Assembly: GCA_963782905.1 (NCBI GenBank)
Contig: CAWALI010000006.1
Location: 33,268 to 97,267 of the forward strand
DNA length: 64,000 nucleotides
Source: an uncultured Actinomycetota bacterium
GTDB taxonomy: Bacteria; Actinomycetota; Actinomycetes; Propionibacteriales; Nocardioidaceae
Reading direction: 5' to 3'
Shown: positions 40,132 through 58,400 of the stretch, piece after piece
Layout of the letters: the number at the start of each line of letters is the position of its first letter
Numbering within the stretch: the stretch's first letter is position 1
The notes under the pieces: model-generated
The model's input: only the letters and a program-made list of their open reading frames with translations
Database searches by the model: none
What the model was told of the DNA's origin: nothing
Translations under genes and position numbers: made by a program

Positions 40132-41031
40132 ATGATCACAGTTGAGTCCCTGACCCGGAGGTATGCCGGCTTCACCGCCGTCGACAACGTCTCGTTCACC
40201 GCCCGGCCCGGCCGCGTGACCGGTTTCCTCGGTCCCAACGGCGCCGGCAAGTCCACCACGATGCGCGTCATGGTCGGTCTGACCGTCCCGACATCCGGCT
40301 CCGCGACCATCAACGGAGAACGGTTCGCCGACCTACCCAATCCCGGCCTCGAGGTGGGCGTCCTGCTGGACGCCTCCGCGCAGCACGCCGGTCGCACCGG
40401 CCGTGAGATCCTCGCGGTCGCCGGGGCCACGATGGGGCTGCCCGGCTCTCGCGTCGACGAGATGCTCGAGCTGGTCAGCCTGACACCCACCGAGGCCAGG
40501 CGCCGGGTGCGCAACTACTCGCTCGGCATGCGTCAACGCCTCGGCATCGCCACCGCGCTGCTCGGCGACCCACGGGTGCTGATCCTCGACGAGCCCGCCA
40601 ACGGGCTCGACCCCGCGGGGATCCGGTGGATGCGCGACCTGCTGACGGGCTTCGCCGGCCGGGGCGGCACGGTGCTGCTGTCCTCGCACCTGCTGCACGA
40701 GATCGAGGTCATCGCCGACGACCTGGTCGTCATCGGCAACGGCAGGATCGTCGCGTCCGGCACCAAGGAAGAGCTCCTCGCGGCCGCCGGGACGCTCGCC
40801 CGCTCGACCTCACCGCGCGACCTCGCTCACGCGCTCGAGCAGGCCGGGATCCCCAGCACGCTCGCCGGGGACGGCTCGGTCCGCACCGATGCCGATCCCG
40901 CCCAGGTCGGGGCCGTGGCCCTGACCGCCGGCATCGCCCTCACCGAGCTCCGGTCCGCCGAGGGCGCCGGTCTCGAAGACATGTTCCTGTCGCTCACCGC
41001 CGACACCCAGCGCGAAGGAGTTGCGGCATGA
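40132..41031 (+). CDS. ABC transporter ATP-binding protein
   Basis: GPNGAGKST, YSLGMRQRL, LILDEPANGLD. Confidence 0.85.
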   Translation: MITVESLTRRYAGFTAVDNVSFTARPGRVTGFLGPNGAGKSTTMRVMVGLTVPTSGSATINGERFADLPNPGLEVGVLLDASAQHAGRTGREILAVAGATMGLPGSRVDEMLELVSLTPTEARRRVRNYSLGMRQRLGIATALLGDPRVLILDEPANGLDPAGIRWMRDLLTGFAGRGGTVLLSSHLLHEIEVIADDLVVIGNGRIVASGTKEELLAAAGTLARSTSPRDLAHALEQAGIPSTLAGDGSVRTDADPAQVGAVALTAGIALTELRSAEGAGLEDMFLSLTADTQREGVAA

Positions 41032-41843
41032 CCGCCACGACCGTCCCGGCGGCCTCCAGCACGGAGGCCGCACCGGTCCGCCGGACCGCCCGTCCCATCC
41101 CGACCGCTCGGCTCGTCACGGTCGAGCTGCGCAAGATGTTCGACACCCGCTCGGGATTCTGGATGCTCGTCAGCATCGGCGTCCTGTCGGTCGCCGCGAC
41201 CGGGGCGGTCATCGTCTTCGCTCCCGACAGCGCCGTCACCTATGACAGCTTCGCGACGGCGATCGGCCTCCCGATGTCGGTCATCCTGCCGATGATCGCG
41301 ATCCTGGCCGTCACGAGTGAGTGGAGCCAGCGCAGTGGGCTCACGACGTTCACGCTGGTGCCGAGCCGCGGACGCGTGATCGGCGCCAAGGCCGTCGCGA
41401 CCGTCGTGGTCGGCCTCGGCTCGATGGCCGTCGCCTTCGCGGTGGGCGCCGTCGGCAACCTGGCCGGCTCCGCGCTCGCCGGCGTCGACACCGTCTGGGA
41501 CGTGCCGCTGTCCACCGCACCCCAGATCGTGCTCGGCAACCTCATCGGCATGGCGATCGGCTTCACCCTCGGCGTGGTGCTGAGGGCCTCGGCCGCGGCG
41601 ATCGTCGCCTACTTCGTGGTCTCGTTCGTGCTGCCCGGCGTCCTCGAGCTGCTCGCGTTGGTGCGGGATTGGTTCCTGGACCTGCAGCCGTGGATCGACT
41701 GGAACTACACGCAGGTGGAACTCTTCGACGGCGCCACGAACACCGGTGAGGAGTGGGCGATGCTCGCCTCGACCACGATGATCTGGATCGTCATCCCCCT
41801 CGTCGTCGGGCTGCTCTTCCTGCGCCGCTCCGAGGTCAAGTAG
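41028..41843 (+). CDS. ABC-2 family permease
   Basis: Start overlaps the ATPase stop; six TM helices. Confidence 0.65.
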   Translation: MTATTVPAASSTEAAPVRRTARPIPTARLVTVELRKMFDTRSGFWMLVSIGVLSVAATGAVIVFAPDSAVTYDSFATAIGLPMSVILPMIAILAVTSEWSQRSGLTTFTLVPSRGRVIGAKAVATVVVGLGSMAVAFAVGAVGNLAGSALAGVDTVWDVPLSTAPQIVLGNLIGMAIGFTLGVVLRASAAAIVAYFVVSFVLPGVLELLALVRDWFLDLQPWIDWNYTQVELFDGATNTGEEWAMLASTTMIWIVIPLVVGLLFLRRSEVK

Positions 41844-42025: not shown

Positions 42026-43450
42026 ATGGGGGAGCTGGACAAGCCGTTCGATCGTCGTCGGGCAGGCGTCCTCCTGCATGTGACGTCCCTGCCCGGACGT
42101 GGGCCCACCGCTGGTTCGAACGACGGCGACCTCGGTGACGAGGCCTACCGGTTCGTTGACTTCCTCGCCGCCGCCGGGTGCTCGGTCTGGCAGGTGCTGC
42201 CGCTGGTGCCGACACATCCGGGGGATGGCTCGCCCTACAACGCTCCGTCCGCGATGGCGGGCAACGCCGCGATGATCAGCCGGGCACACCAGGCCGCTCA
42301 CCATCTCGAGTCTCCGTCCACGCTGGACGAACACCAGCGGTCTGCCTTCTCGTCGTGGTGTGCCGCCCAGGCCGACTGGCTGGATCCGTACGTCGAGTTC
42401 ACGGCGCTGCGCGAGCTCCACGACGGCGCTCCTTGGCTGTCCTGGGCACCTGCGCTGCGCGACCGCGACCCGCGCTCGGTCGCGGATGCGCTCACCCCAC
42501 TCAGCGACCGCCTGGAGTCGCTGCGCTTCGAGCAGTGGGTCTTCACCGTGCAGTGGGCGCGCCTTCGCGAGTACGCCGCGTCCCAGGGCGTGCTGCTGTT
42601 CGGCGACCTGCCGATCTTCGTGTCCCTCGACAGTGCCGACGTGTGGGCCTCGCGGGAGTTGTTCCAGCTGGGCGAGGAGGGGCGCCCGGTGACGGTGTCC
42701 GGTTGCCCGCCCGACTACTTCGCGGCCGAGGGGCAGCGATGGAACAACCCGCACTACGACTGGGATGCGATGGCGGCGGACGGGTTCGACTGGTGGCGGC
42801 GCCGGATCGCGCGCCAGCGCGAGCTGTTCGACCTGGTCCGCATCGATCACTTCCGGGCGTTCGAGGCGGCGTGGCACGTGCCGGCCGACGCCCCCACGGC
42901 CCGTGGTGGCCGGTGGGTCCCGGGGCCGGGCGCAGACATCTTGTCGGTCCTGGTCGACAGCGCAGGACCGGGGTCGTTGGTGGCGGAGGACCTCGGAGTC
43001 ATCACGTCGGAGGTCGAGGAGCTGCGGATCCGGTTCGGTCTGCCCGGGATGAAGGTCCTGCAGTTCGCCTTCGACGGTGACCGCGACAACCCCTACCTCC
43101 CCGGCCACCACGGTGAGCAGAGCGTCGTCTACACAGGCACCCACGACAACGACACCACCCTGGGGTGGTGGGAGCTGTTGGACGAGCAGACCCGCGACCG
43201 CGTCCGCTCCTGTCTCCCTGATCCGGAGGAGGCGATGCCGTGGGCGTTGATCCGACTCGCCATGCAGTCGACGGCTCGGCTCAGCGTCGTACCCGCCCAG
43301 GACATTCTCGGACTCGGCAGCCAGAGCCGGATGAACACACCCGGCACCCCCCAGGGCAACTGGGCCTGGCAAGCGCCTGCCGGGGCCTTCGACGTCCACC
43401 TCGCCACCAGGATCCGGGAGCTCCTGGCCGCCACGGACAGGCTCGGTTGA
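42026..43450 (+). CDS. malQ: 4-alpha-glucanotransferase (amylomaltase, GH77)
   Basis: GVLLHVTSLP, RIDHFRAFE and TGTHDNDT motifs. Confidence 0.85.
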   Translation: MGELDKPFDRRRAGVLLHVTSLPGRGPTAGSNDGDLGDEAYRFVDFLAAAGCSVWQVLPLVPTHPGDGSPYNAPSAMAGNAAMISRAHQAAHHLESPSTLDEHQRSAFSSWCAAQADWLDPYVEFTALRELHDGAPWLSWAPALRDRDPRSVADALTPLSDRLESLRFEQWVFTVQWARLREYAASQGVLLFGDLPIFVSLDSADVWASRELFQLGEEGRPVTVSGCPPDYFAAEGQRWNNPHYDWDAMAADGFDWWRRRIARQRELFDLVRIDHFRAFEAAWHVPADAPTARGGRWVPGPGADILSVLVDSAGPGSLVAEDLGVITSEVEELRIRFGLPGMKVLQFAFDGDRDNPYLPGHHGEQSVVYTGTHDNDTTLGWWELLDEQTRDRVRSCLPDPEEAMPWALIRLAMQSTARLSVVPAQDILGLGSQSRMNTPGTPQGNWAWQAPAGAFDVHLATRIRELLAATDRLG

Positions 43451-43634: not shown

Positions 43635-44432
43635 ATGAATGCGGATGGAGTGGCGCCCTTCCCGGCGGATGCCTTCGAGCGGGTGTTGTGTGTCGTCGCC
43701 CATCCCGACGACGTCGAGTACGGAACCTCCTCGGCAGTCGCGGCCTGGACAAGCCAGGGGGTGGAGGTGGCGTACCTGCTCTTGACGCACGGCGAGGCGG
43801 GCATGGATGCCAGCGCCCCCGACCGGACTGCTGAGCTCCGCGTGCGTGAGCAGGTTGCCGGCTCGACCGCTGTCGGGGTGGCGCAGGTCGACTTCCTGTC
43901 CTACCCCGATGGCGTCCTGGTCTACTCCTTGGACCTGCGCCGCGACATCGCCCGCGCGATCCGCCGGTTCCGTCCCGATGCCGTTCTCGTGGGTTCGTGG
44001 GAGGTGGAGTTCGTCGCCGGCCTGAACCAGGCCGACCACCGTGTCGCCGGCCTCGCCGCCCTGGACGCAGTGAGGGACGCGGGCAACCGGTGGGTGTTCC
44101 CCGAGCTGCTGGATGGCGAGGGTCTCGAGCCGTGGTCGCCGCGATGGTTGCTCGTGTCGGGCGACACCCGACCTACGCACGGCGTTGACGTCACCGGCCA
44201 GGCCCTGGAACGGGGGATCGCTTCGCTGGAGGCTCATCGCGAGTATCTCGCCGGCCTCCCTGGACACCCTCCACCCCGGCCGATGATCAGCGGAATCACC
44301 GCGATGCAGGGGCAGCGGATGGGTGTCGCTCACGCGGTGCTGTTCCGTGCCTTCGACTTCCATGCGCCGCCGCCCATCGCCATGGAAGCAATGACGTTGG
44401 CCGGGACGGAGGCCCCCACCGTCGGTGACTGA
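43635..44432 (+). CDS. PIG-L/LmbE-family deacetylase
   Basis: VVAHPDDVEYG zinc-binding motif. Confidence 0.75.
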   Translation: MNADGVAPFPADAFERVLCVVAHPDDVEYGTSSAVAAWTSQGVEVAYLLLTHGEAGMDASAPDRTAELRVREQVAGSTAVGVAQVDFLSYPDGVLVYSLDLRRDIARAIRRFRPDAVLVGSWEVEFVAGLNQADHRVAGLAALDAVRDAGNRWVFPELLDGEGLEPWSPRWLLVSGDTRPTHGVDVTGQALERGIASLEAHREYLAGLPGHPPPRPMISGITAMQGQRMGVAHAVLFRAFDFHAPPPIAMEAMTLAGTEAPTVGD

Positions 44433-44628: not shown

Positions 44629-45162
44629 CTACCGCTTCACCCAGGGCCCGAAGGTGCGGCGATCCGCAGCCCAGTCCACGGTGTTCGTGCTCTCGTCCTT
44701 GAACTGCACGGCGACCCGGACTCGTCGTGGGTTGTCGAGGCAGCGGCGCGGGATCCGGATCGACACGGGCTTGTCGGTGAAGACGTCGGCGCGAAGTCGT
44801 ATCCCTCGACACTGCACATAAGACCGACGACCATCGAAGGACCGCACGCGTGCGAGCACCTCGTCGAAGTCGGTGTTGGCGCGGAACGCGACGTAGTAGT
44901 CCGGCCGGCGTCCGTGGCCGGAGTCGATCCAGAAGGCGTAGAGCTGTCCGGTTCGTAGTGGAACACCTGAGTGAACGCGCACCATCACCGAGTCCCGATG
45001 GACGACCCGTACGCGCGAGATGTCCACGGAGGTCGAGTCGCCGACGGGATCATCGAACACCGTGGTGTCTCCCATCGCTGGCCCAGGAGCCATGGCAAGG
45101 GTCAGGCCAAGCATCCACATGGACAGTCCTCGAATGGACCACTTCGTTGCGAGCATGCGCAT
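44629..45162 (-). CDS. Secreted hypothetical protein (signal peptide; Arg-rich)
   Basis: N-term MRMLATKWSIRGLSMWMLGLTLAMAPGPAMG resembles a signal peptide; no known motifs. Confidence 0.4.
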   Translation of the reverse strand: MRMLATKWSIRGLSMWMLGLTLAMAPGPAMGDTTVFDDPVGDSTSVDISRVRVVHRDSVMVRVHSGVPLRTGQLYAFWIDSGHGRRPDYYVAFRANTDFDEVLARVRSFDGRRSYVQCRGIRLRADVFTDKPVSIRIPRRCLDNPRRVRVAVQFKDESTNTVDWAADRRTFGPWVKR

Positions 45163-45327
45163 CCCCGTTCACCACGACCCCTGTCGCCCTCATCGTCGGC
45201 TGTTTCAACGCCGCTGGCAAGGTCGTGTCTCCCGCACCCACCGCATGACGGGCCCGGCCGTGAGGCGTGATCTGACCCCGCGAGCCACGGTCTTGCGCTG
45301 CACGCAGGAGCACGACGTGGACTCGGG

Positions 45328-45714
45328 TCAGCCCTTCGCGGGATCGTCGACGTTGACGGTCGGGATGCCGCCACCCACCCGGGCGATGACGGCCAGAGAT
45401 GGCTCCCGGGCGGGGTTCGACTCGCGGTGAACGGTCCAGGCCGGAACGTGGACGAAGTCGCCGGGGCCGGCATCGAGGTAACCGTCGTAGCCCTCGAACT
45501 CGAGACGTAGCACGCCGCGCACGATGTACAGGCTCGACTCGTTCCGCTCGTGGTGGTGCCAGCCCGACACCGCTCCAGGCTCAGTGACGACCTGGCCGGC
45601 CCAGAGCAGCGGGAGCTCGAAGGCCAGGGCACGACTCATGCCGGGCGTCGGGTCGGCCGAAGCCACGTCGGCCGGCGTGAAGACCCGTACGGGCCGAGGC
45701 ACCTCACCGCTCAT
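45328..45714 (-). CDS. Cupin-domain protein
   Basis: GAVSGWHHHE...YIVRG...GDFVHVPAWTVH (two His-containing cupin motifs). Confidence 0.6.
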   Translation of the reverse strand: MSGEVPRPVRVFTPADVASADPTPGMSRALAFELPLLWAGQVVTEPGAVSGWHHHERNESSLYIVRGVLRLEFEGYDGYLDAGPGDFVHVPAWTVHRESNPAREPSLAVIARVGGGIPTVNVDDPAKG

Positions 45715-45827
45715 GACGTCAGCGTGCCACGACCGGGCGCCCCTCACGACCCACGACCAGCACGACACGGCCGACACCGGCCGCGAGCCGACCCTGTTCG
45801 GGGAGGAGACCCCGATAACGTCCGGGG

Positions 45828-47561
45828 GTGGCCAGTCCTCGACGATCCGGTGCTCGTCGACGCAGCGCGTCCCCCCGCCGGAGCGGCACACGACGACAGC
45901 AGCGGCCCTTGCCGGCCGCCGGGCCGGGGGAGCGGCTGTGGGTGCTCGACGTCCCGTACGCGACGCAGGTCGACGGCGCCACCTGGCACCCTGCCGTCAA
46001 GACCCACCTGTACGTCGGGTGCACCCTGCCCGCGCACCTCGCGCCGTACTCTCCGGGGCCGTACACGCTCGGTCAGTTCATCGAGAACACCCTCAATCCC
46101 GACCATCCGACGCCGAGCCCCGAGCCGACCGACGAGCTCGAGCCCCGGAGGATCCAGTTCGAAGCAGCCGATGCGATCGCGGCGCGCGCCGCGGCGGGCG
46201 GACGCCAGTTCCTGCTCGCCGACGAGCCCGGCGTGGGCAAGACCATCGCCGCGGTCCTCGGGGCGACGGCGGTGGGCGACCTCCGCGGTGCGCGACGGGT
46301 GCTGGTCGTGGCCGACCGGCCCGCCGCGATCACGATCGGGCACTGGTGTCGCACGATCACGGCTCTGGGACATGGCGGTCTGGAGTGGGTCGTGATCACG
46401 TGGGACCGGCTGGAGAAGGTCAAGGACCACACCTGGGACGTGATCATCGCGGACGAGGCCCACGCCCTGCGACGTACGACGACGAAGCGGTGGAAGCTCT
46501 GGGCGCAGATCTCGGGGCACGGCCGGCCGCACGACAAGGCGCCGTTCGTCATCGCGACCACCGCGACGCCCGGACACACGCCGCTCGAGCTGCCGTACCT
46601 GGCTCCCGCATACGCGCAGGTCCTCGGCGAGTCGATGAGGGAGTGGACCTCGGGGGCGCAACCCGGGGACGCCTTCGCCACCGCGCTCGAGCGCCACGGC
46701 GTCGGGGTGGAACGGGGACGCTACGGCGCGACGTGGACCACCGATCCGGCGCGGCGCGCTGCGGACCTCAAGCTCGTGCGCGGCTGGCTCGACGAGGAGC
46801 GGCCTCCGGCGATGCTGCACCGGGCCGCGCCGTGGGGTCCGGTGCCGATCTCCGGCATGCCCGTGGCGCTCACGCCCGCGGAGCGAACGGCGTACGAGGC
46901 CGAGTGGGGGGAGTTCTGTCGTGAGATGGACATCGCCCGCCGCGGCCGCAATGTCGCGAAGGGGCGGGCCGCGCTCCTGCGCTTCCGGCAGAAGGCCGGG
47001 CTCATTCGGGTCGACTCGACGGTCGCCTGGATCGCCCAGCAGGTCGAGGGCGAGCGACAGGTGGCGTGCTCGGTCGAGTTCGTCGCGACCGCCGCCGACC
47101 CGATCGCCGACCGGCTACGCGACTCGGGCATCGACGTCGCCACGATCTACGGCCGCGACCGGTTCGATCCAGAGGTCGAGCGGCTCCGGTTCCAGACCGG
47201 GCAGGCGAAGGTCTGCGTCTTCACCACGGTCGCCTCCATCAGCCTGCACGCCGGCGAGACCCTCGCCGACGGCCGCCGTGCGAGCACGGAGCCGCGGGTG
47301 GGTGTCTTCCACCAGGCCCGTTTCTCGGGCATCGCCGGGCGACAGGTGACCGGCCGCACCCACCGCGACCACCACGTCTCGCCGTGGCACATCGCGTACG
47401 CCGAGGGCACCGTCGAGGAGCAGGTCGGCAAGGTGATGGTGGAGCGGATCGCCGCGGCCTCCGACACCGTGGGCGGCGACACCACCGGCCTCGCCGACCT
47501 CGCCCAGCTGCTGGGAGCCGACTGGCTGCCGATCACGACCCTGACCGAGGGCGGTGCCTGA
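45828..47561 (+). CDS. SNF2-like (SF2) ATPase with a non-canonical Arg-rich/Cys-His N-terminal domain; start codon uncertain
   Basis: Motif I LLADEPGVGKTIAAV, motif II VIIADEAHAL and a motif VI-like QVTGRTHRDHH. The approximately 110-aa N-terminal region is unrelated to helicases. Confidence 0.5.
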   Translation: MASPRRSGARRRSASPRRSGTRRQQRPLPAAGPGERLWVLDVPYATQVDGATWHPAVKTHLYVGCTLPAHLAPYSPGPYTLGQFIENTLNPDHPTPSPEPTDELEPRRIQFEAADAIAARAAAGGRQFLLADEPGVGKTIAAVLGATAVGDLRGARRVLVVADRPAAITIGHWCRTITALGHGGLEWVVITWDRLEKVKDHTWDVIIADEAHALRRTTTKRWKLWAQISGHGRPHDKAPFVIATTATPGHTPLELPYLAPAYAQVLGESMREWTSGAQPGDAFATALERHGVGVERGRYGATWTTDPARRAADLKLVRGWLDEERPPAMLHRAAPWGPVPISGMPVALTPAERTAYEAEWGEFCREMDIARRGRNVAKGRAALLRFRQKAGLIRVDSTVAWIAQQVEGERQVACSVEFVATAADPIADRLRDSGIDVATIYGRDRFDPEVERLRFQTGQAKVCVFTTVASISLHAGETLADGRRASTEPRVGVFHQARFSGIAGRQVTGRTHRDHHVSPWHIAYAEGTVEEQVGKVMVERIAAASDTVGGDTTGLADLAQLLGADWLPITTLTEGGA

Positions 47562-47647
47562 CCGGGCCCGGCCCGGGTCCGGCCGGTCACGGACCGGCGA
47601 TCGCAGATCCAGAAGCGAGGGAGGACGGCCCCGCCTACGCTGGTCCC

Positions 47648-48157
47648 ATGGCCGAGGTGAGTCCGGTTCCCCGTTCCCGGCCCCTCGAGCGAGGTTCCGA
47701 GCGCGCCATGTTGGAGAGCATGCTCGACTGCTATCGCGCGACGGTGGTCAACAAGGTCGCCGGACTGACCGATGCTCAGGCGTTCGCGGCCGCCGTGCCA
47801 CCTTCGACACTCACTCCCGCGACCGTGGTCAAGCACCTGGCGGGAACGGAGCGGTTCTGGTTCAGCATCGACTTCGCCGCTCTCGACGTGCCGTGGCCAT
47901 GGACTGACGACGACCTGCACGGCAACTTCCGCATCGAGGCCGGCGACACCCTGGCCGGGATCGTGGGTGACTACCTCCACGAGTGCGAGCTCTCCCGCCA
48001 GGCGATCGCTGACGCCCACCTCGACCAGCCCGCTCGCGGCGAGGAGATGGACTTCACCCTCCGATTCGCACTGCTGCACATGATCGAGGAGACCGCACGG
48101 CACTGCGGGCATCTCGACCTGCTGCGCGAGGCCACGGACGGCGCCGTAGGCTTCTAG
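47648..48157 (+). CDS. DinB/DUF664-family (four-helix-bundle metal-binding) protein
   Basis: HxxxE...H pattern (HLAGTERFW ... HMIEETARHCGHLDLL). Confidence 0.6.
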   Translation: MAEVSPVPRSRPLERGSERAMLESMLDCYRATVVNKVAGLTDAQAFAAAVPPSTLTPATVVKHLAGTERFWFSIDFAALDVPWPWTDDDLHGNFRIEAGDTLAGIVGDYLHECELSRQAIADAHLDQPARGEEMDFTLRFALLHMIEETARHCGHLDLLREATDGAVGF

Positions 48158-48166
48158 GCCGGAGGC

Positions 48167-48982
48167 TTGCCTGTGGTGCCCAGCACGGCTGATGCGGTGT
48201 CAGCGTCCGTCGCCTGTGCCCGGGCACGGGGTCTTCCTGCCGATGATCCCGAGGTCATCGCCGAGGGGTACAGCGTCCGTGTGCGCCTCAGGCCCGCAGC
48301 CGTCGTCACCCGCGTGGTCACCACTGGGCGAGAGCTACGCCCAGAACCCTTGCCGTGGCTGGAACGTGAAGTGGCTGTCGCGCAGTTCCTGGCCGCGTCG
48401 AGCGTCCCCGTCGTGGGTCCGTGGGAGCACCCAGGGCCCCACCTCGCGGAAGGGCTCGACGTGTCCTTGTGGCACTGGGCCGACCACGACTCGAGCGAGG
48501 TGTCGGGCGCCGACTTCGGGGCGATGCTGGGACGTCTGCACGATGCCCTCGCGTCGTACCCCGGTGACCTGCCCACGCTGGTGGGCCCCCTCACCGACAT
48601 CACCACGGCACTCAACATCTCGTCTGATCCAACCCTCCACCGCGCGGCGGCCGAGCTGCTCCCACTGGCCCTGTCCTGGCCGCGCCGCCCCCTGCACGGA
48701 GACGCCCACACAGGGAATGTCCTGGTGACGCCGTCGGGCCCCCTCTGGACGGATTTCGAGGACGTCTGTGTGGGGCCGGTGGAGTGGGACCTGGCTTCGA
48801 TGACGGTCACTGACGACGCGCTCGATGCCTACCCCGGCCACATCGATCGAACCCGACTCGCCGACTGCCGTGACCTTCGTCGTCTGCAGGTATTGGCAAG
48901 CCTGCTGGTGGGGGTCCACGACGATGCTGCGCTCCGCACGTCGCTCAGGACGCACCTCGACCGACGTCGCGATCAGCACTGA
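48167..48982 (+). CDS. Aminoglycoside/choline-kinase-type phosphotransferase (APH family)
   Basis: LHGDAHTGNVL (Brenner motif) and DFEDVCVGPVEWDLA. Confidence 0.65.
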   Translation: MPVVPSTADAVSASVACARARGLPADDPEVIAEGYSVRVRLRPAAVVTRVVTTGRELRPEPLPWLEREVAVAQFLAASSVPVVGPWEHPGPHLAEGLDVSLWHWADHDSSEVSGADFGAMLGRLHDALASYPGDLPTLVGPLTDITTALNISSDPTLHRAAAELLPLALSWPRRPLHGDAHTGNVLVTPSGPLWTDFEDVCVGPVEWDLASMTVTDDALDAYPGHIDRTRLADCRDLRRLQVLASLLVGVHDDAALRTSLRTHLDRRRDQH

Positions 48983-49100
48983 ACCTGGGCTGATCAACGA
49001 GAGATGGAATCCGCCGGTGCTGGGGGCGCCGCTCGTCGCGGTGGGGATCATGGTTTGGGGTTCGTGCTGGTGCGTGGTCCGGTGGGGCTCCGAGCGGACG

Positions 49101-50387
49101 TCAGCCGAGCAGGGCTGCGCGGGCCACGTCGCCGCCCGGTGCCCGGCGCAGTTCCTCGCCGATCGTGCGGGCCAGGTCCGGGGCAGGGCCGTCGAGGACG
49201 GCGCGCACGGCGGCACGCAGGTCCGCGGAGGTGACCACGTTCGGGTCGAGCGCTGCCCCCAGCCCGGCGGCCTCGATCGCCGCCGCCCCCGCGAACTGGT
49301 CGGTGGAGAACGGCAACACCACCATCGGCACCCCGGCAGTGAGCGCCTCCGTCACGCTGTTGTTGCCGCCGTGTGTGACCAGCACCGCCGTCCGGTGCAG
49401 CAGGGCGACCTGCGGCAGGTAGGGACGCATCAGCCAGTCCGGCGGAGCCTGCGGCAGGCCGGTGGCGGAGCCGGTGGCCACCGCGACCCGAAGGCCGAGC
49501 GGGCGCAGCGCGTCCAGCACCGTCGCCAGCACGTCCCCGCGCGCCGACAAGAAGCTGCCGAAGCTGACGTAGATCACCGGCCGGTCGTCGACGGCGAGCC
49601 AGTCCCGGACGTCGTCGGTCGCCGGCTCGGCCCGCACGGCCGAGCCGAGAAACGCGTGCGGTGGCAGCAACGCCGTGCGTGCCGGGTCGTGCAGAGCGGC
49701 CGGGTAGTTCAGCATCAGCAGGTCACCGTGCTCGGCGAACGCGTCCGCCGACGGCGTGGCACCGGGTGCCAGCTCGTGCAGGGCGGTGTTCCACTCCGCA
49801 GTGAAGGCGTCCCGGACGTCGCGGCACAGCCGGTGCAGGGCGGCGAGGTCGGACTCCGGCGCGGTGAAGGCGGTCGGCCAGGCGGGCGGGTAGCCGTACA
49901 CCTCGTCTCCGACCGGCAGCGCGGACGGGTGGCCGAGCACGACATCGGCGTACGGGACGCCCGCCACGGCCAGCGCGAGGCGGGCGCTGAACGCCAGATG
50001 GTCGACGATCACGTGGTCGGGCTTCACCCGGTCGACGACGTCCAGGACGGCCCGGGCCCGGTCCACCGGCTCCCACAGCAGGTCGGTGCGCCGCGCCTCG
50101 GCCTGGTAGCGCAGCGTCGCCACCATGCCGTGCCGGGTGGCCGCGAAGAAGCCACGCAGCGCTGCGTCCTCGCCGGGTGGCTGCTGCTCGACCCGGATGA
50201 CACCGGGATTCGAGCCCCGGCCCAGCACCAGATGGGCACGGTCGAAGCCGAACCCGGCGACGATGTCGGCGGTCGCCGGGCCGGTTGCCACCACCACAGG
50301 CTCGCCGGCGTCCCGCCAGGCCGTCGCGAGAGTCGCCAACGGCAGCAGGTGCGACGCGTAGTCCGGACTGATCACCAAGAGGGTCAT
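49101..50387 (-). CDS. GT1-family (MGT/UDP-glycosyltransferase) glycosyltransferase
   Basis: C-terminal nucleotide-sugar motif VTHGGNNSVTEALTAGVPMVVLPFSTDQ. Confidence 0.75.
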   Translation of the reverse strand: MTLLVISPDYASHLLPLATLATAWRDAGEPVVVATGPATADIVAGFGFDRAHLVLGRGSNPGVIRVEQQPPGEDAALRGFFAATRHGMVATLRYQAEARRTDLLWEPVDRARAVLDVVDRVKPDHVIVDHLAFSARLALAVAGVPYADVVLGHPSALPVGDEVYGYPPAWPTAFTAPESDLAALHRLCRDVRDAFTAEWNTALHELAPGATPSADAFAEHGDLLMLNYPAALHDPARTALLPPHAFLGSAVRAEPATDDVRDWLAVDDRPVIYVSFGSFLSARGDVLATVLDALRPLGLRVAVATGSATGLPQAPPDWLMRPYLPQVALLHRTAVLVTHGGNNSVTEALTAGVPMVVLPFSTDQFAGAAAIEAAGLGAALDPNVVTSADLRAAVRAVLDGPAPDLARTIGEELRRAPGGDVARAALLG

Positions 50388-50400
50388 GCGAGTGACCGTG

Positions 50401-52512
50401 TCACGAGCGGCCCGCCGTACGGGCGGCACCGGCGTAGATCGCGCTCAACCGGTCGGCCATGGCCTGCACGGTGAAGTCGGCGCTGATCCGCTCCAGCGCC
50501 AGGTCCATCCGCTCGACCTGACCCGGCGCGGAGGCGAGGCGGAACGCGGCCCGCATCGCACGGGCCACCTCGTCCGGCCGGCGGGTGTCGACGAGTACGC
50601 CGGTCACCCCGTCATCGATGTAGGTGGCCGGTCCGCCGGCCGACGGGCCCACCACCACCAGCCCGGAGGCCAGGGCCTCCACCAGCGCCAGGCCGAACTC
50701 CTCCTTGAGGCTGCTGCACACGTACACCCCGCCCGGGCCGATGCCGCCTGCCGTGCCCGCCCGCGCGGCCGCCAGCCAGACCGCCACCACGTCGTTGGGG
50801 CGGTGACCGGGCATCAGCAGGCCCGCAGCGGCCGCGGGGGACCGCGTCACCAGCTCGGCGATCAGGTCGAGCTGCTCGCGTTCGTCCGGGGAGGGATCGG
50901 CCAGGTCACCGCCGACGATGAGCAGGTTGCACCGCTCGGCCAGCTCAGCATCGCCGGCCCACGCCTCGACCAGGGTCGCCATTCCCTTGACCCGGTGCAG
51001 GCGCCCCACGCTGATCACCAGCGGCAGCCGTCTACGGTGCTCGGGCAGCGCGGCGACGAGCGCGTCGAGCTCGGCCAGCGCCGGGCCGGGCGTTCCGGGC
51101 CGCTCCACCTCGGCGGCAGCCGTGGCACTGACTCTCAGGTCGATGCCCTCCGGCACCACGGTGAACCGGCCGGGCTGCCCGGCCACGTCCAGCCCGAGCA
51201 GCTCGCGCATGTCGCGCTGCAGCTCGGGGCGGGGGAAGAGAACGATATGTGCCGAGTCCTCGGCCAGTCGCTGCACGAGACGGGCACGGAACCAGTAGTG
51301 CTCCCGCTCGTCGATGGTGCCGAAGTTGCGCCGGTGCAGGCCACCGGTCATGTCCAGGGCATGGATGACGGCGTGCGGGTCGGGCGCGAGGGTGAACACC
51401 ACCGGGATACCCAGCTCGCGGGCCACCTCGGCAGCGGCCAGGCTGCCCACCTCCGCCATCCGCAGGTGCAGGACGTCGGCGCGGTGCGTCCGCAGCACGC
51501 GGCGGATCCCGCGTTCCGCCGCGACCCGCGACGGCCAGGCCTGCGCGGCGGAGGCGGCCTCGGTGAGCAGGGGCACCGGGGTCAGCAGGTGCCCCTCGGC
51601 CGGGGTCAGCGCGTCCAGGGCGGCGCGGGAGGTGCCGCGGGACAGCGTCAGCACCCGGTCGACACCGGGCCCGGTCGCCAGCGCGTCACCCAGCCGGACC
51701 AGCAGCGTGGCGACCCCGCCGTTGTCTCCTGCGCCCGCCCGGCTGAGGTCACGGTCGATGTCGGCGTGCAGGAAGAGCTGGGCGACGGTCAGTCCGGGCC
51801 CGCTGCCGCCACGCTCGGCGGCGTCGATACCCAGATCGATCGCGGCAAGCCGGGCGACGGTTCCCAGGTCCCCGTCGGCCGCGCTGAGGTGACGGATCAG
51901 CGCCACCGTGGCGGCCTCGGCCGGGCGGTCGCCCAGGGCGGCGACGGCGGTCAGCCGTACCGTCGGGTGCTCGCCGTCGTCGGCGGCGAGCTGGAGCAGC
52001 GCGCGTCCGGCGATCGGACCGGGCACCAGGCCAAGGGTCTCCACCAGCCTGCTGCGGGCCGCCGGACCGGCCGCCCCGGTGAGCGCACCTTCGATGGCGA
52101 GCGAGACCTGCCCCGGCGCGGAGACGGCCCATCGGGCGAGCGTGCGTTGGGCGAGGACGCCGGAGAACCCACCGCTCACGACGACCCGGACCAGCCTGCC
52201 GATCGCGTCGAGGCGGGGCAGCCGAGCCTTGAGCGCCCAGCTCGCGTGCTCACGCAGGAATGCCCGGGGGTGCGACAGCAGCTCGGACAGGAGGGCGTCG
52301 GCCTCGTCGTCGAACACCCTGGCAAGGGCATGCACGGCCGCCACCGCGGTCAGCTCGTCGTCCTCGTGGATCACCGCGGCCAGCAGCCGCACCGGTTCCG
52401 GTCCGCCCTCGCCGCCGGCGGCGGCCGCGAGGCGGTCCCCGCTGCGCAGCACGTCCACCACGAACGGTGCCTGCTGGACCTCGTCGAGGATGTGCCGCAA
52501 AGACAGCGCCAT
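50401..52512 (-). CDS. GT4-family glycosyltransferase with a long N-terminal Ala/Leu-rich (HEAT-like) extension
   Basis: C-terminal GT4 core (VISVGRLHRVKG...EEFGLALVEALASGLVVV); the N-terminal roughly 350 aa are helical-repeat-like. Confidence 0.6.
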   Translation of the reverse strand: MALSLRHILDEVQQAPFVVDVLRSGDRLAAAAGGEGGPEPVRLLAAVIHEDDELTAVAAVHALARVFDDEADALLSELLSHPRAFLREHASWALKARLPRLDAIGRLVRVVVSGGFSGVLAQRTLARWAVSAPGQVSLAIEGALTGAAGPAARSRLVETLGLVPGPIAGRALLQLAADDGEHPTVRLTAVAALGDRPAEAATVALIRHLSAADGDLGTVARLAAIDLGIDAAERGGSGPGLTVAQLFLHADIDRDLSRAGAGDNGGVATLLVRLGDALATGPGVDRVLTLSRGTSRAALDALTPAEGHLLTPVPLLTEAASAAQAWPSRVAAERGIRRVLRTHRADVLHLRMAEVGSLAAAEVARELGIPVVFTLAPDPHAVIHALDMTGGLHRRNFGTIDEREHYWFRARLVQRLAEDSAHIVLFPRPELQRDMRELLGLDVAGQPGRFTVVPEGIDLRVSATAAAEVERPGTPGPALAELDALVAALPEHRRRLPLVISVGRLHRVKGMATLVEAWAGDAELAERCNLLIVGGDLADPSPDEREQLDLIAELVTRSPAAAAGLLMPGHRPNDVVAVWLAAARAGTAGGIGPGGVYVCSSLKEEFGLALVEALASGLVVVGPSAGGPATYIDDGVTGVLVDTRRPDEVARAMRAAFRLASAPGQVERMDLALERISADFTVQAMADRLSAIYAGAARTAGRS

Positions 52513-52674
52513 GCTCGGTGTTCGGCGCCGGGCCCGGAGCGGATGGCCCCCAGGACCGGGTGGTCTGGACCACCTCACCGGGGAGCTCCCCGGTGGGATC
52601 ACCCACCCGGCGTGCGGACACTCGGGGGAGTGGTCCACACTGGTCACCTGCCAGTCTCGTCAGGGGCTGGCCTC

Positions 52675-52748
52675 GCGGACGTGGTGTAGTTGCAGCACGC
52701 TTCCCTTCCAGGGAAATGGTCGAGGTTCAAATCCTCGCGTCCGCTCCA
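52675..52748 (+). tRNA. tRNA-Gly (anticodon TCC)
   Basis: Acceptor GCGGACG/CGTCCGC, T-arm CGAGG-TTCAAAT-CCTCG, anticodon loop CTTCCAG (U33, A37), 3' T-CCA encoded, 4-nt variable loop. Confidence 0.6.
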
Positions 52749-52811: not shown

Positions 52812-55244
52812 TCACAGCGCCCGGGTGCGCACCATCCGCAGCACCTCTTCGGAGCGTTCGGTGAGCGCACCGACCACCACGGGCGCGGCCCGGGCGGCCG
52901 CCACCTCGCGGGCGTGCCCCACCCACGCCTCGTCGATCGCGAACACCGGGAAGAGACTGAAGGTGAGGGCCAGGCCGGGGATCATCCCGCCCTCGTGCAG
53001 GGCGGGCAGCGCCTCGATGTAGCGCTCGGCGTACGGAGCCAGCACCTCGTCCTGGCCGGGCCGCCAGAAGGCTGCCCCCACGGTGCTCGCGGTCTGGATG
53101 GGCACGGCGCGCTCCACCAGCGCGGTCCACGCCTCCTCCTTCGCCTCGGCGGAGGATGCGCTCGCCCGCACGCAGAGCGCACGGACCCAGGCGTCGGGGT
53201 CGGGGTCCCGCTCCTGCAGGGCCTGCACGGCATGGGTGTCCACGTCGCCGAGCTCGGCCCGGCGCTGCAGGACGAACCACTGCAGGTCCAGGTCGTCGCC
53301 GGCCCGTTCACGCAGCGAGGCGAGGTCCTCCTCGCCCGCCGCCGTCCGGGCCAGCGTGCGCAGCGCCGAGTGCCGCGACACCCCTGCGTCCACCAGGTGA
53401 CGGGCCGCGGCGGCCACCTGCGCCTCCAGGCCGACCCGCTCCGACTCGGGCGCCCACTGCTGGGCGGCGCCGAGGGCGAGCGCGAGGCACGGCTCGGCGA
53501 CCGTCTCCACGGTCTCCACCGACAGCACGTCGGTGAACGCGCCCACAGCCTCGGCGGCTGTCGCCTCCGCGCTGGACAGCATGTCCCACACGGTGGCCAT
53601 CGCCACGGCGCGGGCCAGGGTCGTGGGCAGGCCCGAGGGGTGGCCGATGAGTATCTCGCGCCCGGCGACGTCAGGTCGGGTCGTGGCGAACGTGGTGTCG
53701 TCGTGGTTCACCAGGTAGAGGTCGGCCTGGGGCAGACCCTCGACGGCGGTGCGCTCGCCCTCCACCTCCACGCGGGCGGAGCCCACCTCCTCGAGCGCCT
53801 CGCCGGCGCGGCGGTAGGCGCCCACGCCCACCACCTGCGGGTGCGGGGCACCGTGTGCGCCGACGGCGGTGAGCACCAGGCCGTCGTCGGTGTGATCGAT
53901 GCCCAGGCGGTCGACGCCGGCTGTCTCCAGCCACGCGGTGCGCCACGGCTGGAGGTCGCGGCCGCTGGCCCGCTCCAAGGAGCGGACGAGGTCGTCGAGG
54001 GTCGTGTTGCCCCAGGCGTGCTCGGCGAAGTAGGCGCTCATGCCCACGCAGAACGTGTCCTCACCCACGAAGTGCATGAGCTGCTTGAGGACCGCCGCGC
54101 CCTTGGGATAGGTGATGGAGTCGAAGATCGACTCGGCGTCGGCCACGGTGGGCACGGATTGGCGGATGGGGTGCGAGCTGGGCCCCTGGTCGGCGAGGTA
54201 GGCGTTCAGCTTGTCGCCCACCAGGTTGTTGGCGGCCGTGTCGCCGTACGCGGTGGCCCGCTCGGCCGCCCACATGCAGGCGAACTCGGCGAAGGCCTCG
54301 TTGAGCCAGAGGTCGTCCCACCAGCGCATGGTGACGATGTTGCCGAACCACATGTGCGCCATCTCGTGCAGCAGCACGTTGGTGAACAGCTGCCACTCGC
54401 CGGTGGTGGGCTCGTGGCGGCGCAGGACGCTGTCGGCCCAGGTGACGCAGCCGTAGTTCTCCATCGCCCCGCCGAACTCGGCCAGGAACACCTGGTCGTA
54501 CGAGCGCTGCGGGAACGGCATGCCGAAGCGCTCGCCGAAGAAGGCGAGGCCCTGGGCCGTGAGCGTGAACAGCTGCTCGGCGTCGCGCTCCAGCGCCGAG
54601 GCCAGGGTCCGCCGGGCGTAGAGGCCGAGGTCGTACCCGCCGGCCTCCTGGCGCACCTCCACGAACGGGCCCGCCACCACCACAGGGTTGTAGGTGGAGA
54701 GCGGCGGCGTGGGCTCGAACGTCCACCGACGCCCGCCCTCGACGTCCTCGATGAGCGGGTCGCCGGAGTTGCTCACCACGGTCCACGCCGCCGGCGCGGT
54801 GACCGTGAACGCGTGAGGTGCCTTGAGGTCGGGCTGGTCGAAGCAGGCCCAGGCGTAGCGCGCCTCGTCGGGCTCGAAGCTGGTCCACACGTAGACGTTG
54901 TCGTCGCCGGGGTCGACGGCACGGTGCACCCCCCGTCCGTGGGTGGTGTCCCGCTGCATCGTGGCCACCACCAGCTCGTTGTCCTCGGCGAGGTCGGCCA
55001 GCGCGATCCGTCCTTCGACCGCTGCGGGCAACGGCTCGCCGTTGAGCCTGGCCGACTCCACCTCGGCGCAGCAGTCGACGAACGTCGACGCCCCGGCGGT
55101 GCCCGTGAAGCGCACCGTGCTGACGGCCCGGAAGCCGGGACCGTCGAGCATCTGGGCGAGGTCGATGTCGATGTCGTAGGAGGTGACCGACAGCAGCGCC
55201 GCACGCTCGACGGCCTCCTCCTGTCGAAGACTGCGGACGGGCAC
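52812..55244 (-). CDS. pepN: Aminopeptidase N (M1 family)
   Basis: GAMEN exopeptidase motif (GGAMENYG) and HEMAHMWFGN...LWLNEAFA zinc motif. GTG start at 55244 chosen by alignment to typical PepN N-termini. Confidence 0.85.
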   Translation of the reverse strand: MPVRSLRQEEAVERAALLSVTSYDIDIDLAQMLDGPGFRAVSTVRFTGTAGASTFVDCCAEVESARLNGEPLPAAVEGRIALADLAEDNELVVATMQRDTTHGRGVHRAVDPGDDNVYVWTSFEPDEARYAWACFDQPDLKAPHAFTVTAPAAWTVVSNSGDPLIEDVEGGRRWTFEPTPPLSTYNPVVVAGPFVEVRQEAGGYDLGLYARRTLASALERDAEQLFTLTAQGLAFFGERFGMPFPQRSYDQVFLAEFGGAMENYGCVTWADSVLRRHEPTTGEWQLFTNVLLHEMAHMWFGNIVTMRWWDDLWLNEAFAEFACMWAAERATAYGDTAANNLVGDKLNAYLADQGPSSHPIRQSVPTVADAESIFDSITYPKGAAVLKQLMHFVGEDTFCVGMSAYFAEHAWGNTTLDDLVRSLERASGRDLQPWRTAWLETAGVDRLGIDHTDDGLVLTAVGAHGAPHPQVVGVGAYRRAGEALEEVGSARVEVEGERTAVEGLPQADLYLVNHDDTTFATTRPDVAGREILIGHPSGLPTTLARAVAMATVWDMLSSAEATAAEAVGAFTDVLSVETVETVAEPCLALALGAAQQWAPESERVGLEAQVAAAARHLVDAGVSRHSALRTLARTAAGEEDLASLRERAGDDLDLQWFVLQRRAELGDVDTHAVQALQERDPDPDAWVRALCVRASASSAEAKEEAWTALVERAVPIQTASTVGAAFWRPGQDEVLAPYAERYIEALPALHEGGMIPGLALTFSLFPVFAIDEAWVGHAREVAAARAAPVVVGALTERSEEVLRMVRTRAL

Positions 55245-55446
55245 AGGCGTGGTCCTCACTCGAGGTCGGGTGCTGCGGACGGCGCCCGAGGTGAGCGACG
55301 TACGCAGCCTAGGGCCCGGTGCACGCCGGAGCGAGGGCTCACCGGTGGCACGGAGGCACGGAGGTCGGAGCCGCAGTAGCCTCACAGGCGTGACAGTCTC
55401 GCGACGAGGAATGCCAGAGCGAGCCGTCGAATCGGGAGGCGCCAGG

Positions 55447-58400
55447 ATGTTCACTCGAGTTGCCATCGTGAATCGCGGCGAGGCCGCGATGAGGCTGATC
55501 CACGCCGTGCGGGACCTGAACGCGCACGGTGGTGGGGCACCGATCCAGACGATCGCGCTGCACACCGACGAGGAACGGACGGCGATGTTCGCGCGGGAGG
55601 CCGACGAGGCCTTCTCGCTGGGTCCGGCCTCGGCACGCCCGTACATCGACCTGGCCGTCCTGGAGCGGGTGCTGGTCGAGTGCGCCGCAGACGCGGTGTG
55701 GGTGGGTTGGGGGTTCGTCGCCGAGGACCCCGCGTTCGCCGAGCTGTGCGAGCGCCTCGGCGTCACGTTCGTGGGTCCGAGCGCCGACGCGATGCGCCGG
55801 CTGGGCGACAAGATCGGATCCAAGCTCCTCGCGCAGGAGGTGGGCGTGCCGGTCGCGCCGTGGAGCGGCGGTGGGGTCGACACGCTGGACGCGGCGCTGG
55901 ACGCCGCCGCACGCATCGGCTACCCGCTCATGCTCAAGGCGACCGCCGGCGGGGGCGGCCGGGGCATCCGCAGGGTCGACTCGACCGCCGACCTCGAGGA
56001 CGCCTACCAACGCACCCGCGACGAGGCCGAGCGCGCCTTCGGCAGCGGCGTGGTCTTCCTCGAGCGCCTCGTGACCGGGGCACGGCACGTCGAGGTCCAG
56101 CTGATCGCCGACGGTCACGGCACCGCGTGGGCGGTGGGCGTCCGCGACTGCACCGTGCAGCGGCGCAACCAGAAGGTCATCGAGGAGTCGGCGTCGCCGC
56201 TGCTCGACCGGAGCCAGACCGATGAGCTCAAGGCGTCCGCCGAGCGGCTGGCCCTCGCGGTGGGGTACGTCGGCGCGGGGACGGTCGAGTTCCTCTACCA
56301 CCCGGGTGAGCGGTCGTTCGCCTTCCTCGAGGTCAACACCCGCCTGCAGGTCGAGCACCCGATCACCGAGACGACCACGGACCTCGATCTGGTCAGGGCG
56401 CAGCTGCACGTCGCCGCTGGTGGCCGGCTCGAGGGGCCGAAGCCTCTCGAGCGGGGACACGCCGTCGAGGCCCGGCTCAACGCCGAGGACCCGGACCGGG
56501 ACTTCGCGCCCTCGCCCGGACGGATCGCGCTGCTCGACCTGCCCTCGGGGCCGGGGATCCGCGTCGACACCGGCGTCGGCGAGGGCGACACCATCCCCGC
56601 CGACTTCGACTCGATGATCGCCAAGATCATCGCCTACGGCAGCACCCGCGACGAGGCGCTGGCCCGGCTGCGTCGGGCGATGGGGGAGACCACCGTCGTG
56701 ATCGAGGGGGGTGCCACCAACAAGAGCTTCATCCTCGACCTGCTGCGAGCAGTCCGAGGTCGTCGACGGCGAGGCGGGCTGGGCCGACACCAGCTGGATC
56801 GACCGGGTCCGCGCCGAGGGACGACTCGTCGTGCACGAGCACTCCGGCATCGCCGTCGTCGCGGCCGGCATCGAGGCCTACCAGGACGAGGCGCAGGTCG
56901 AGGTCACCCGACTGCTGGAGAGCGCCCACGGAGGTCGACCGCAGGTGCAGCACAAGGTCGGCCGCGCGGTCGACTTCAAGCTGCGCGGGACGGCGTACAA
57001 GGTCACCGTCCTCCAGATCGGTCCGCACCGGTACCGGGTCGGCGTGGCGGCGGGCGGTGCCGAGCACGTCGTGGTCGCCGACGTCGAGCGGCTCGACGCC
57101 TTCCACACCCGGCTGACGGTCGGCGACCAGCGCCACCACCTGGTCACCGCCACCCATGGTCCCGTCCACATGATCGAGGTCGACGGTGTGGCCCACCGGG
57201 TCAGCCGCGACGAGGGCGGGGTGCTCCGCTCGCCGGCACCCGCGCTCGTCGTCGCCTCTCCCGTCGCGGTCGGCGACCTGGTCGCGGCCGCGGCTCCGGT
57301 CCTGGTCCTGGAGAGCATGAAGATGGAGACGGTGCTGCGGGCGCCGTTCGCGGCCCGGGTCCGTGAGGTCCTGGTGCCGACCGGGAGCCAGGTCGAGACC
57401 GGCGCCCCGCTGGTGCGCCTCGAGCCCGTCGAGGAGGACGCCGCCGAGGAGGCGGCGCCGTCCGACGAGGCCGGACCCGCCCTCGACCTGCCGCCCTTCG
57501 TGCCGGCCGACTCCGCGCGGGAACGCGCCGCGCGCAGCCGCGACGACGTCGCGGCGATGGTCATGGGGTACGACGTGGACGCGAGCGAGGACGGCGACGT
57601 GATCGCGGACTATCTCGTGGCCCGCGACGAGCTCGTGGCGGCGGGCGTCGACGTGGTGGCCGACGAGATGGAGCTCCTGCGCCTCTTCGCCGACCTCGCC
57701 GAGCTCAGCCGCAACCGCCCCGCCGGGGAGGACCTGCACACCGAGCTGCGCGTGCACAGCCCGAAGGAGCACTTCCACGCCTTCCTGCAGAGCCTCGACG
57801 TGGACCGGGGCGGACTCCCCGAACCGTTCCGCGACCGCCTCATCAGGGTGCTCGCCCACTACGGCGTGACCGACCTGGACCGGACTCCGCAGCTGGAGGA
57901 GGCGGTGTTCCGGATCTTCCTGGCGCAGCAGCGACCCGACCCCGAGGTCCGCCTGGCGACCGAGCTGCTGCAACGCTGGATCGTCGAGCCGCCCCCGGCC
58001 GAGGAGCTGGCCGGGCCGGCGCGCGACCTCCTCGAGCGGCTCGTCAGGTCCACCCAGCTCCGCTTCCCGGCGGTCGGCGACCTGGCCCGCAGCACTCGCT
58101 TCCGCTGGTTCGACCAGCCGCTGGTCGACGCGGAGCGCTCGAGCGTGCTGGCGGGGGTCCGCGACGAGGTGGAAGCCCTGGCCGCGGATCCCGACACTCC
58201 GGACCGGACCGCACGGCTGGAGGCGCTGGCCGCGATCCCGGAGCAGATCGTGCGGTTCCTCGCGGAGCGGCTGGAGGGCGGCGTCCCGGAGCACGAGCCG
58301 ATGCTCGAGGTGCTGGTGCGCCGGCACTACCGCGAGCACGACCTGCACGGACTGCGGTCCTTCGTGCGTGACGGGCGGACGTTCGCGGAGGCCGACTACG

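Follow-up and report, generated by a model that had tools for sequence, protein, structure and literature searches.

Gene content and organisation of the block

We analysed a stretch of 64,000 nucleotides from an uncultured member of the Nocardioidaceae (assembly GCA_963782905.1, contig CAWALI010000006.1, positions 33,268 to 97,267), hereafter the window. Within it, a block of genes at positions 44629–52748 ends at a tRNA-Gly(TCC) gene and contains a 577-aa SNF2-type helicase. Since the GC content was about 72% throughout the window, genes were called via third-position GC, and the calls were checked against Pfam and NCBIfam. The block is preceded on the forward strand by malQ (about 42026–43450) and a gene for a PIG-L deacetylase assigned by Pfam (43635–44432). 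Its first two genes lie on the reverse strand and encode a 177-aa protein with a signal-peptide-like N-terminus and no assigned family (44629–45162) and a small cupin (Cupin_2, E = 2.4e-11; 45328–45711). They are followed on the forward strand by the helicase gene (45828–47561; Pfam ResIII, SNF2-rel_dom and DEAD), a gene for a DinB-superfamily protein of the Pfam ‘mycothiol S-transferase’ family (MST/DinB; DinB_2, E = 2e-39; 47639–48157) and a gene for a small-molecule kinase of the APH fold (PF01636, E = 3e-15, 57 bits; 48167–48982). Two glycosyltransferase (GT) genes on the reverse strand, assigned by Pfam, complete the protein-coding part: an UDPGT/EryCIII-like GT1 (49101–50429) and a HEAT-GT4 of 703 aa that combines HEAT_2, Glyco_transf_4 and Glycos_transf_1 domains (50401–52512). 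The tRNA-Gly(TCC) gene (52675–52748, forward strand; ARAGORN, Rfam tRNA 58.7 bits) is transcribed away from the block, and beyond it lies pepN, coding for an M1 aminopeptidase according to Pfam (52812–55916, reverse strand).

This gene content and order, as listed in the initial annotation, were confirmed by Pfam, ARAGORN and Rfam, and Rfam returned no RNA element in the window besides the tRNA. Two start codons differed from the open reading frames (ORFs) as called. The HEAT-GT4 ORF runs from 50401 to 52647, and its true start was placed at about 52512 because homologues have 703 aa. The malQ start had been put at 41753 but is probably near 42026, since homologues have 474 aa. The long ORF (565 aa from 41753) overlaps the 3’ end of an ABC-2 permease gene (about 41028–41840).

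Synteny in relatives

Most assemblies available for comparison were drafts or metagenome bins. Several modules recurred within about 15 kb in close relatives, in differing order and orientation: malQ, the gene of the secreted-type 177-aa protein, the PIG-L gene, the helicase gene, the GT pair and a LuxR-type two-component pair. The same gene order throughout the genus, which would have made the block part of the core genome, was not seen. In one relative (L056), a tRNA-Gly(TCC) gene was located 1.1 kb from the helicase gene, with no GT, kinase or DinB gene in between. Other genes of the window were found near the helicase in only four close relatives, and these were malQ, an ABC gene or the secreted-protein gene.

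The two GT genes stayed together. GT1 was found 14 nt downstream of HEAT-GT4 in five loci (L083, L084, L089, L090 and L091), with GT1 amino acid identities of 84–92%, and the pair as a whole was 83–93% identical across Nocardioides. More than 100 homologues of HEAT-GT4 with 80–93% identity were detected in Nocardioides and soil assemblies, nearly all of 685–712 aa; homologues with about 60% identity were present in Actinoplanes, Nakamurella and Kineosporia. The pair was kept, with different flanks throughout, in N. sediminis, N. conyzicola and three metagenome assemblies, five loci that all lack a tRNA gene. HEAT-GT4 (first gene) and GT1 (second gene) make up a fixed operon of two genes, conserved by vertical descent across Nocardioides. 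The two enzymes probably build one glycoconjugate by two successive sugar transfers. In L089 (17529–22112), a Transposase_mut gene and a fragment of a phage integrase were located 5–10 kb from the pair, which is consistent with a rearrangement-prone region. Because the GT pair loses its flanking synteny just as the helicase does, gene shuffling is a property of these genomes.

The remaining genes of the block were conserved to different degrees. The 177-aa protein (44629–45162) had no match in Pfam, NCBIfam or PADLOC; homologues with 78–79% identity adjoin malQ in L063 and L090/L091. Its gene thus belongs with malQ in relatives despite its filler-like composition. The genes for MST/DinB, the APH-like kinase and the cupin are filler of low conservation and lower synonymous-site GC. 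A cupin homologue occurred within 10 kb of the helicase in one of 82 loci (L052, 66% identity), the MST/DinB gene was not found beside the helicase in the other fetched loci, and the kinase had no homologue in any fetched locus.

We read the block as a rearrangement-prone stretch of a Nocardioides-like chromosome, in which unrelated, independently inherited modules happen to be adjacent and the adjacency to tRNA-Gly is incidental. We put the probability of this reading at roughly 70%.

Distribution and genomic context of the helicase

Helicase homologues with 68–90% identity were found in Nocardioides, Aeromicrobium, Marmoricola and Brachybacterium. A scan with one genome per species detected relatives in 277 genomes, of which the best 80 were 88–96% identical and belonged to the Nocardioidaceae. 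When 1.84 billion cluster representatives were searched in full with HMMER, 441 relatives were returned at E ≤ 0.001. Above 50% identity the entire clade was covered by a single representative, full-length proteins with 40–51% identity were few, and the wider set had 30–43%.

A conserved partner gene was sought and rejected. When the genes within ±10 kb of 83 helicase loci were clustered, no family occurred in more than 10 loci. A Pfam census of the 143 immediate neighbours in about 80 genomes yielded 156 families, the commonest of which (alpha/beta hydrolase) was counted six times; methylase or nuclease families were absent from the 25 most frequent. Small syntenic groups of 2–4 species exist among the loci. 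The orthologues with 40–60% identity in Prescottella equi, Dietzia and Modestobacter were likewise solitary amid housekeeping genes. DNA similarity around the helicase gene, traced in seven tabulated loci and in alignments of 83 sequences, spanned 45783 to about 47575 and ended within about 15 nt of the stop codon. Hairpins past the stop codon were no better than in shuffled sequences (z = −1.0). The helicase gene is a monocistronic, single-gene unit with its own conserved promoter. Each of two metagenome bins held two copies of the gene on separate contigs (L059/L067 and L031/L075). The upstream regions of the L059/L067 copies were nearly identical, which suggests a strain mixture or assembly duplicate rather than paralogues.

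The promoter/operator module, defined by the alignment of 83 upstream regions, covers about 53 nt (45775–45827, forward strand) and was kept in front of the helicase gene in about 80 genomes, although the flanks are unrelated. The conserved 45–55 nt had the consensus GGACGTGGGCGAGCCGGCTCTGTTCGTGGAGGAGACCCCGATAGCGTCCGGGG, followed by GTG or ATG. A putative −10 hexamer, TAACGT (45816–45821; TAnnGT in the alignment), is located 6 nt before the GTG at 45828 and also supplies an in-frame stop codon. The relatives carry the palindrome GAGCCGGCTC at about 45783–45792, and GGACGTGGGCGAGCCGGCTCTGTTCG is a putative operator within the module. Because the −10 hexamer ends 6 nt before the start codon, the helicase mRNA is probably leaderless. 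A position weight matrix of the upstream 26-mer, run over the fetched loci (about 1.8 Mb), found no further strong site. Among known elements that we considered, neither the actinobacterial LexA box nor the RecA-independent damage promoter fits the spacing of the module, to our knowledge.

Descent of the helicase gene

To assess the age of the helicase gene relative to its companions, four-fold-site identity was determined within each genome pair for the helicase and for other genes; about 0.41 is expected between unrelated genes. Between the window and L028, L056 and L063, the identity was 0.724, 0.722 and 0.696 for the helicase and 0.741, 0.750 and 0.769 for malQ, respectively. In the comparison with N. 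sediminis the helicase (0.809) was close to HEAT-GT4 (0.816) and GT1 (0.859), and in that with L003 it reached 0.853 (ABC gene: 0.754). At the protein level, the helicase was 92–96% identical in the compared pairs versus 85–94% for the companion genes, and 92–95% versus 85–91% for L028, L056 and N. sediminis, so that it is the more constrained protein. Because its four-fold-site identity matches theirs, the helicase is as old as its genomic companions. This pattern indicates vertical descent within the Nocardioidaceae under strong purifying selection, not recent transfer. Conserved flanks or terminal repeats were sought and not found, and recent transfer within Nocardioides was rejected given the same synonymous-site identity as in co-located genes.

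The helicase and its promoter might alternatively be a self-contained module that moves horizontally between actinobacteria. Such mobility would explain the very high identity combined with ever-changing neighbours, and it agrees with the sharp edges of conservation at 45783 and about 47575, the lack of neighbours in common and the two copies in each of two metagenome bins. In a neighbour-joining tree, Brachybacterium (e.g. L002), which belongs to a different order, formed one clade nested within the Nocardioidaceae, and Microlunatus aurantiacus (L019) and an Ornithinibacter metagenome-assembled genome (L015), which could be mis-binned, were placed in the Nocardioides crown. The four-fold-site identity to Brachybacterium was 0.59, compared with 0.61 to Aeromicrobium. 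These data suggest an old inter-order transfer of the helicase gene into Brachybacterium. Within Nocardioides, however, its synonymous divergence equals that of neighbouring and unlinked genes in the same genome pairs, the GT pair is equally devoid of conserved flanks, small syntenic groups are present, and neither terminal repeats nor a recombinase accompany the gene. We therefore consider a mobile module unlikely.

Domains and fold of the helicase

The AlphaFold2 model of the helicase had a pLDDT of 88.8 and a pTM of 0.86, with residues 1–23 below a pLDDT of 50. The protein has three parts. Residues 1–35 (45828–45932) form a disordered basic tail rich in Arg, Ser and Pro, with SPRR repeats. 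Many of the gaps between loci in these first about 35 codons were multiples of three and GTG alternated with ATG at 45828; the tail is therefore translated. Basic tails were seen in the listed actinobacterial orthologues whose sequences reach that far, and the tail presumably binds DNA.

Residues 36–105 (45933–46142) form a divergent DUF5710-like domain, for which the model has strands at residues 36–40, 52–54 and 59–64 and helices at 69–74 and 81–89. Compared with the DUF5710-type N-domain of distant relatives, it was matched by hhalign with a probability of 99.2% (E = 3e-19); the aligned N-terminal segment of one such relative (P0382) scored 38.2 bits with Pfam DUF5710 (PF18974; cut-off 26.5). 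Pfam did not detect DUF5710 directly in the window protein, nor was it among the 25 most-matched families in 69 orthologues. A 4-residue deletion in the DUF5710 core is probably the reason why Pfam misses the domain in this clade. The initial annotation had taken the N-domain to be novel, with Cys and His residues suggestive of zinc binding. No Cys or His was conserved in the N-domain of the 69 orthologues, which ruled out a zinc-binding domain. A match of the N-domain to an ordinary housekeeping helicase family was not found either; it matches a known, uncharacterised domain. Our literature search on DUF5710 returned nothing relevant.

Residues 106–577 (46143–47561) make up a two-lobe ATPase core of the SNF2 type, identified by profile searches, Foldseek and its motifs (Walker A GVGKT, DEAH and motif VI QxxGRxHR). 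G135, G137, K138, T139, D209 and E210 (of DEAH), Q506, G509, R510, H512 and R513 were invariant in the 69 orthologues and 17 diverse relatives. The best match in a profile search of the PDB was the SWI2/SNF2 core of Sulfolobus (1z63, E = 6e-20), and nearly all of the top 50 Foldseek matches in the PDB were Snf2-family ATPases (E about 1e-16, probability 1.00), including Chd1, Ino80, ISWI, CSB, Mot1 and RapA. With Pfam SNF2-rel_dom, relatives P0254 (67.7 bits) and P0314 (51.3 bits) passed the cut-off, and 66 of the 69 orthologues matched at E ≤ 1. The core has the SNF2 fold, and the protein is an uncharacterised member of a subfamily of DUF5710-bearing SNF2 ATPases.

Like the best-matching SNF2 structures, of which 1z63 was the top profile match, the helicase has two RecA-like lobes and SNF2-type motifs, but it is only 13–18% identical to them and has no SWIM-protein partner, chromodomain, HSA or other accessory domain; the basic tail and the DUF5710-like domain take their place. 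It is more similar to a group of DUF5710-SNF2 helicases of other bacteria (P0314, P0382, P0256, P0253 and P0254), with which it shares the architecture, a collinear full-length alignment (28–43% identity) and a homologous N-domain. In contrast to the window protein, the members of this group have no basic tail, some carry two copies of DUF5710 and some contain inteins. LAGLIDADG/HINT inteins were located inside the ATPase core of the distant relatives P0253, P0254, P0256 and P0271 (940–1100 aa, 30–43% identity). Orthologues also weakly matched Helicase_C_4 (39 of 69) and AAA_34 (10 of 69), and there was a match to phrog_62, which recalls the Strawberry-notch-like and methylase-coupled SNF2 ATPases of phages and conjugative elements (DarB type). 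Unlike in that type, no methyltransferase was fused or adjacent in the Pfam-annotated helicase loci or present among the top neighbour families, and the setting is one of chromosomal housekeeping genes. A phage origin was rejected: there was one remote IMG/VR match (26% identity) on a 420-kb contig, and the BFVD matches were generic SNF2 helicases with 10–18% identity.

Function of the helicase

Translocation on duplex DNA without strand separation is established for SNF2 enzymes (PMC5512222). From the fold and the knowledge of this family, the most likely mechanism of the helicase has three steps. The tail and the DUF5710 domain would fix the protein to DNA or to a partner that is bound to DNA, the two RecA-like lobes would then move along the duplex without unwinding it, and this translocation would displace or remodel DNA-bound proteins in a housekeeping transaction of DNA or transcription.

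The initial annotation had considered the protein as a possible DNA-targeting or defence-associated motor. In that case it could drive an anti-phage or anti-plasmid system, as do DrmD, BrxH and DpdE, and there were some observations in line with such a role. The protein gave weak partial matches to the BrxHI/HII, DrmD, DpdE and HmaA models, family relatives matched the phage helicase phrog_62, and in Brachybacterium vulturis AbiEii, Abi_2 and a Schlafen/AlbA_2 gene are found less than 10 kb from the helicase gene. The PADLOC and NCBIfam matches were partial, however, covering motifs I–II only, and their scores of 12–24 bits stand against NCBIfam cut-offs of 500–1100, that is, 20–50 times lower. 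Pfam and PADLOC scans found no partner genes of DISARM, BREX or Dpd in the window, and the most frequent neighbour families of about 80 loci included none. No partner was conserved in the 83 loci, the most frequent neighbour family being that seen in 6 of 143 neighbours, with methylases and nucleases outside the commonest families as described above. Defence genes are typically patchy and fast-evolving, whereas this gene is near-universal, 88–96% identical in the 80 best loci and vertical in its synonymous divergence. In P. equi, Dietzia and Modestobacter, moreover, it is flanked by housekeeping genes. A motor of defence is thus quite improbable, and a housekeeping role may be inferred instead.

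Composition and origin of the block

GC content at four-fold sites (GC4) divided the genes into two groups. It was 0.73–0.82 in the genes for the secreted protein (0.73), MST/DinB (0.77), the APH-like kinase (0.79), the cupin (0.81) and PIG-L, and 0.89–0.91 in those for the helicase, GT1, HEAT-GT4 and pepN; across the block, window GC was flat at about 0.69–0.75. The composition of the block is therefore only partly atypical, with five small genes low in GC4 and the helicase, GT1 and HEAT-GT4 resembling pepN. The 37 ORFs that were scanned comprised all called genes at 33.7–62.2 kb and most of the larger ones at 9.9–13.6 and 18.9–33.6 kb. Outside the block they encode the functions of an ordinary chromosome, among them catalase, a SpoIIE phosphatase, a two-component pair, ABC transporters, cyanophycin synthetase, SerB and acetyl-CoA carboxylase. 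At 61000–64000 the GC content fell to about 0.66, compared with about 0.72 elsewhere; this part holds a gene for an SBF-family transporter (61171–62199, reverse strand).

The block had been described in the initial annotation as an old island or simply a variable region, of which the second part holds. An island inserted at tRNA-Gly long ago, its integrase lost in the meantime, would be in line with the tRNA gene that the block abuts, as in tRNA-linked islands, with the several genes of low GC4 and with the variation in gene content from malQ to the tRNA between relatives. Insertion by tRNA-targeting integrases places the island 3’ of the tRNA gene. Here, a forward-strand tRNA gene has the block on its 5’ side and pepN on its 3’ side. 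As the initial annotation had noted, there was no integrase; transposases and recombinases were likewise absent among the 37 scanned ORFs, and no terminal repeats were found. A direct repeat of the tRNA 3’ end, for which the initial annotation had suggested a search further upstream, was not detected: the 25-nt 3’ end had no second copy in the window at up to three mismatches. A 17-mer of the T-arm/acceptor 3’ region had an inverted match with two mismatches at 40112–40128 (reverse strand), 12.5 kb away and just upstream of an ABC ATPase gene. This near-match was within chance (three matches versus a mean of 0.27, with three reached in 1 of 100 shuffles), and a repeat scan of 40–58 kb yielded GC-rich matches at chance level only. 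In relatives, the helicase, the GT pair and the malQ-linked genes were found apart and in other orders, so that presence or absence as a unit was not observed. The helicase, GT1 and HEAT-GT4, each kept across the genus at other genomic places, have native composition and account for more than half of the block. Located on the wrong side of the tRNA, devoid of integrase and att repeat and not inherited as a unit, the block is very unlikely to be an old island.

The initial annotation had further proposed that the kinase, the two glycosyltransferases and DinB form one cassette for the modification of a small molecule such as a macrolide or aminoglycoside. The genes are adjacent, the kinase has the APH fold, and the best NCBIfam matches of GT1 were macrolide-type glycosyltransferase models. 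All macrolide and rifamycin models were far below their cut-offs, however (MGT 108.8 versus 260, Mgt 59.3 versus 700, OleI 57.6 versus 700, Rgt 47.3 versus 800), as was the aminoglycoside resistance model APH(6) for the kinase (17.8 versus 325), which reached only the generic APH fold PF01636. MST/DinB is a full-length member of PF04978 (135.8 bits, cut-off 27), and the kinase gene starts 10 nt after it; this pair is on the opposite strand to the GT pair, convergent with it and different in codon composition. Tblastn found no kinase or DinB homologue in the five relatives’ loci that keep GT1 and HEAT-GT4. Because the GT pair persists in relatives while all other neighbours change, GT1 belongs with HEAT-GT4 and not with the kinase and DinB, and the cassette is hardly tenable.

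Within the same neighbourhood there are a PIG-L deacetylase (best match BshB1, sub-threshold), a GT4 with sub-threshold similarity to MshA, and MST/DinB. The distance between PIG-L and the GT pair is also less than 10 kb in L090/L091. A link between PIG-L, GT4 and MST via deacetylation of a GlcNAc-glycoside or thiol-conjugate chemistry is possible.

Discussion

The locus is best understood as a rearrangement-prone chromosomal stretch of independently inherited modules, and several points weigh against this reading or against parts of it. The four small genes of the block with lower synonymous-site GC, together with PIG-L, may be partly of horizontal origin. Since most assemblies of relatives are drafts or bins, part of the rearrangements and duplicate copies seen (L059/L067, L031/L075) could result from errors in assembly or binning. 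The neighbour-joining tree that places Brachybacterium within the Nocardioidaceae carries no support values. A generic scan for sigma-70 promoters and terminators detected neither for the helicase, and its leaderless start is a prediction from the nucleotide sequence. DUF5710 was reached through profile–profile comparison, and the window protein itself scored 24.4 bits with Pfam SNF2-rel_dom, just under the cut-off of 24.9. The biochemical role proposed for the helicase follows from its fold and family, with no conserved partner that points to a pathway.

A possible functional parallel is RapA/HepA of E. coli, an SNF2 ATPase of 968 aa with N-terminal RNA polymerase-binding domains that recycles RNA polymerase. 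Both are bacterial, chromosomal, stand-alone SNF2 ATPases (structural match E = 4e-14, sequence-profile match E = 2e-9), and either could plausibly clear complexes from DNA. In contrast to RapA, the window helicase has 577 aa and a different N-terminus, and it scored 20.2 with the NCBIfam RapA model (PRK04914; cut-off 576). As a speculative extension, which we regard as doubtful in its entirety, the DUF5710-SNF2 protein would be an unrecognised housekeeping DNA translocase of the Nocardioidaceae and several other actinobacterial lineages. Expressed from its own leaderless promoter/operator, it would act in a RapA-like manner where RapA is absent, clearing stalled polymerases or nucleoid proteins, and it would have been captured by Brachybacterium via inter-order transfer.

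For the annotation of similar loci, our results mean that a cluster of odd genes next to a tRNA gene in a high-GC actinobacterium need not be an island. The side of the tRNA, att repeats and a comparison of synonymous sites with co-located genes are quick checks for this. For the Nocardioidaceae, the helicase represents a small and uncharacterised SNF2 subfamily with about 90% identity in the family, always encoded alone. Its characterisation would extend the bacterial SNF2 remodellers beyond RapA.

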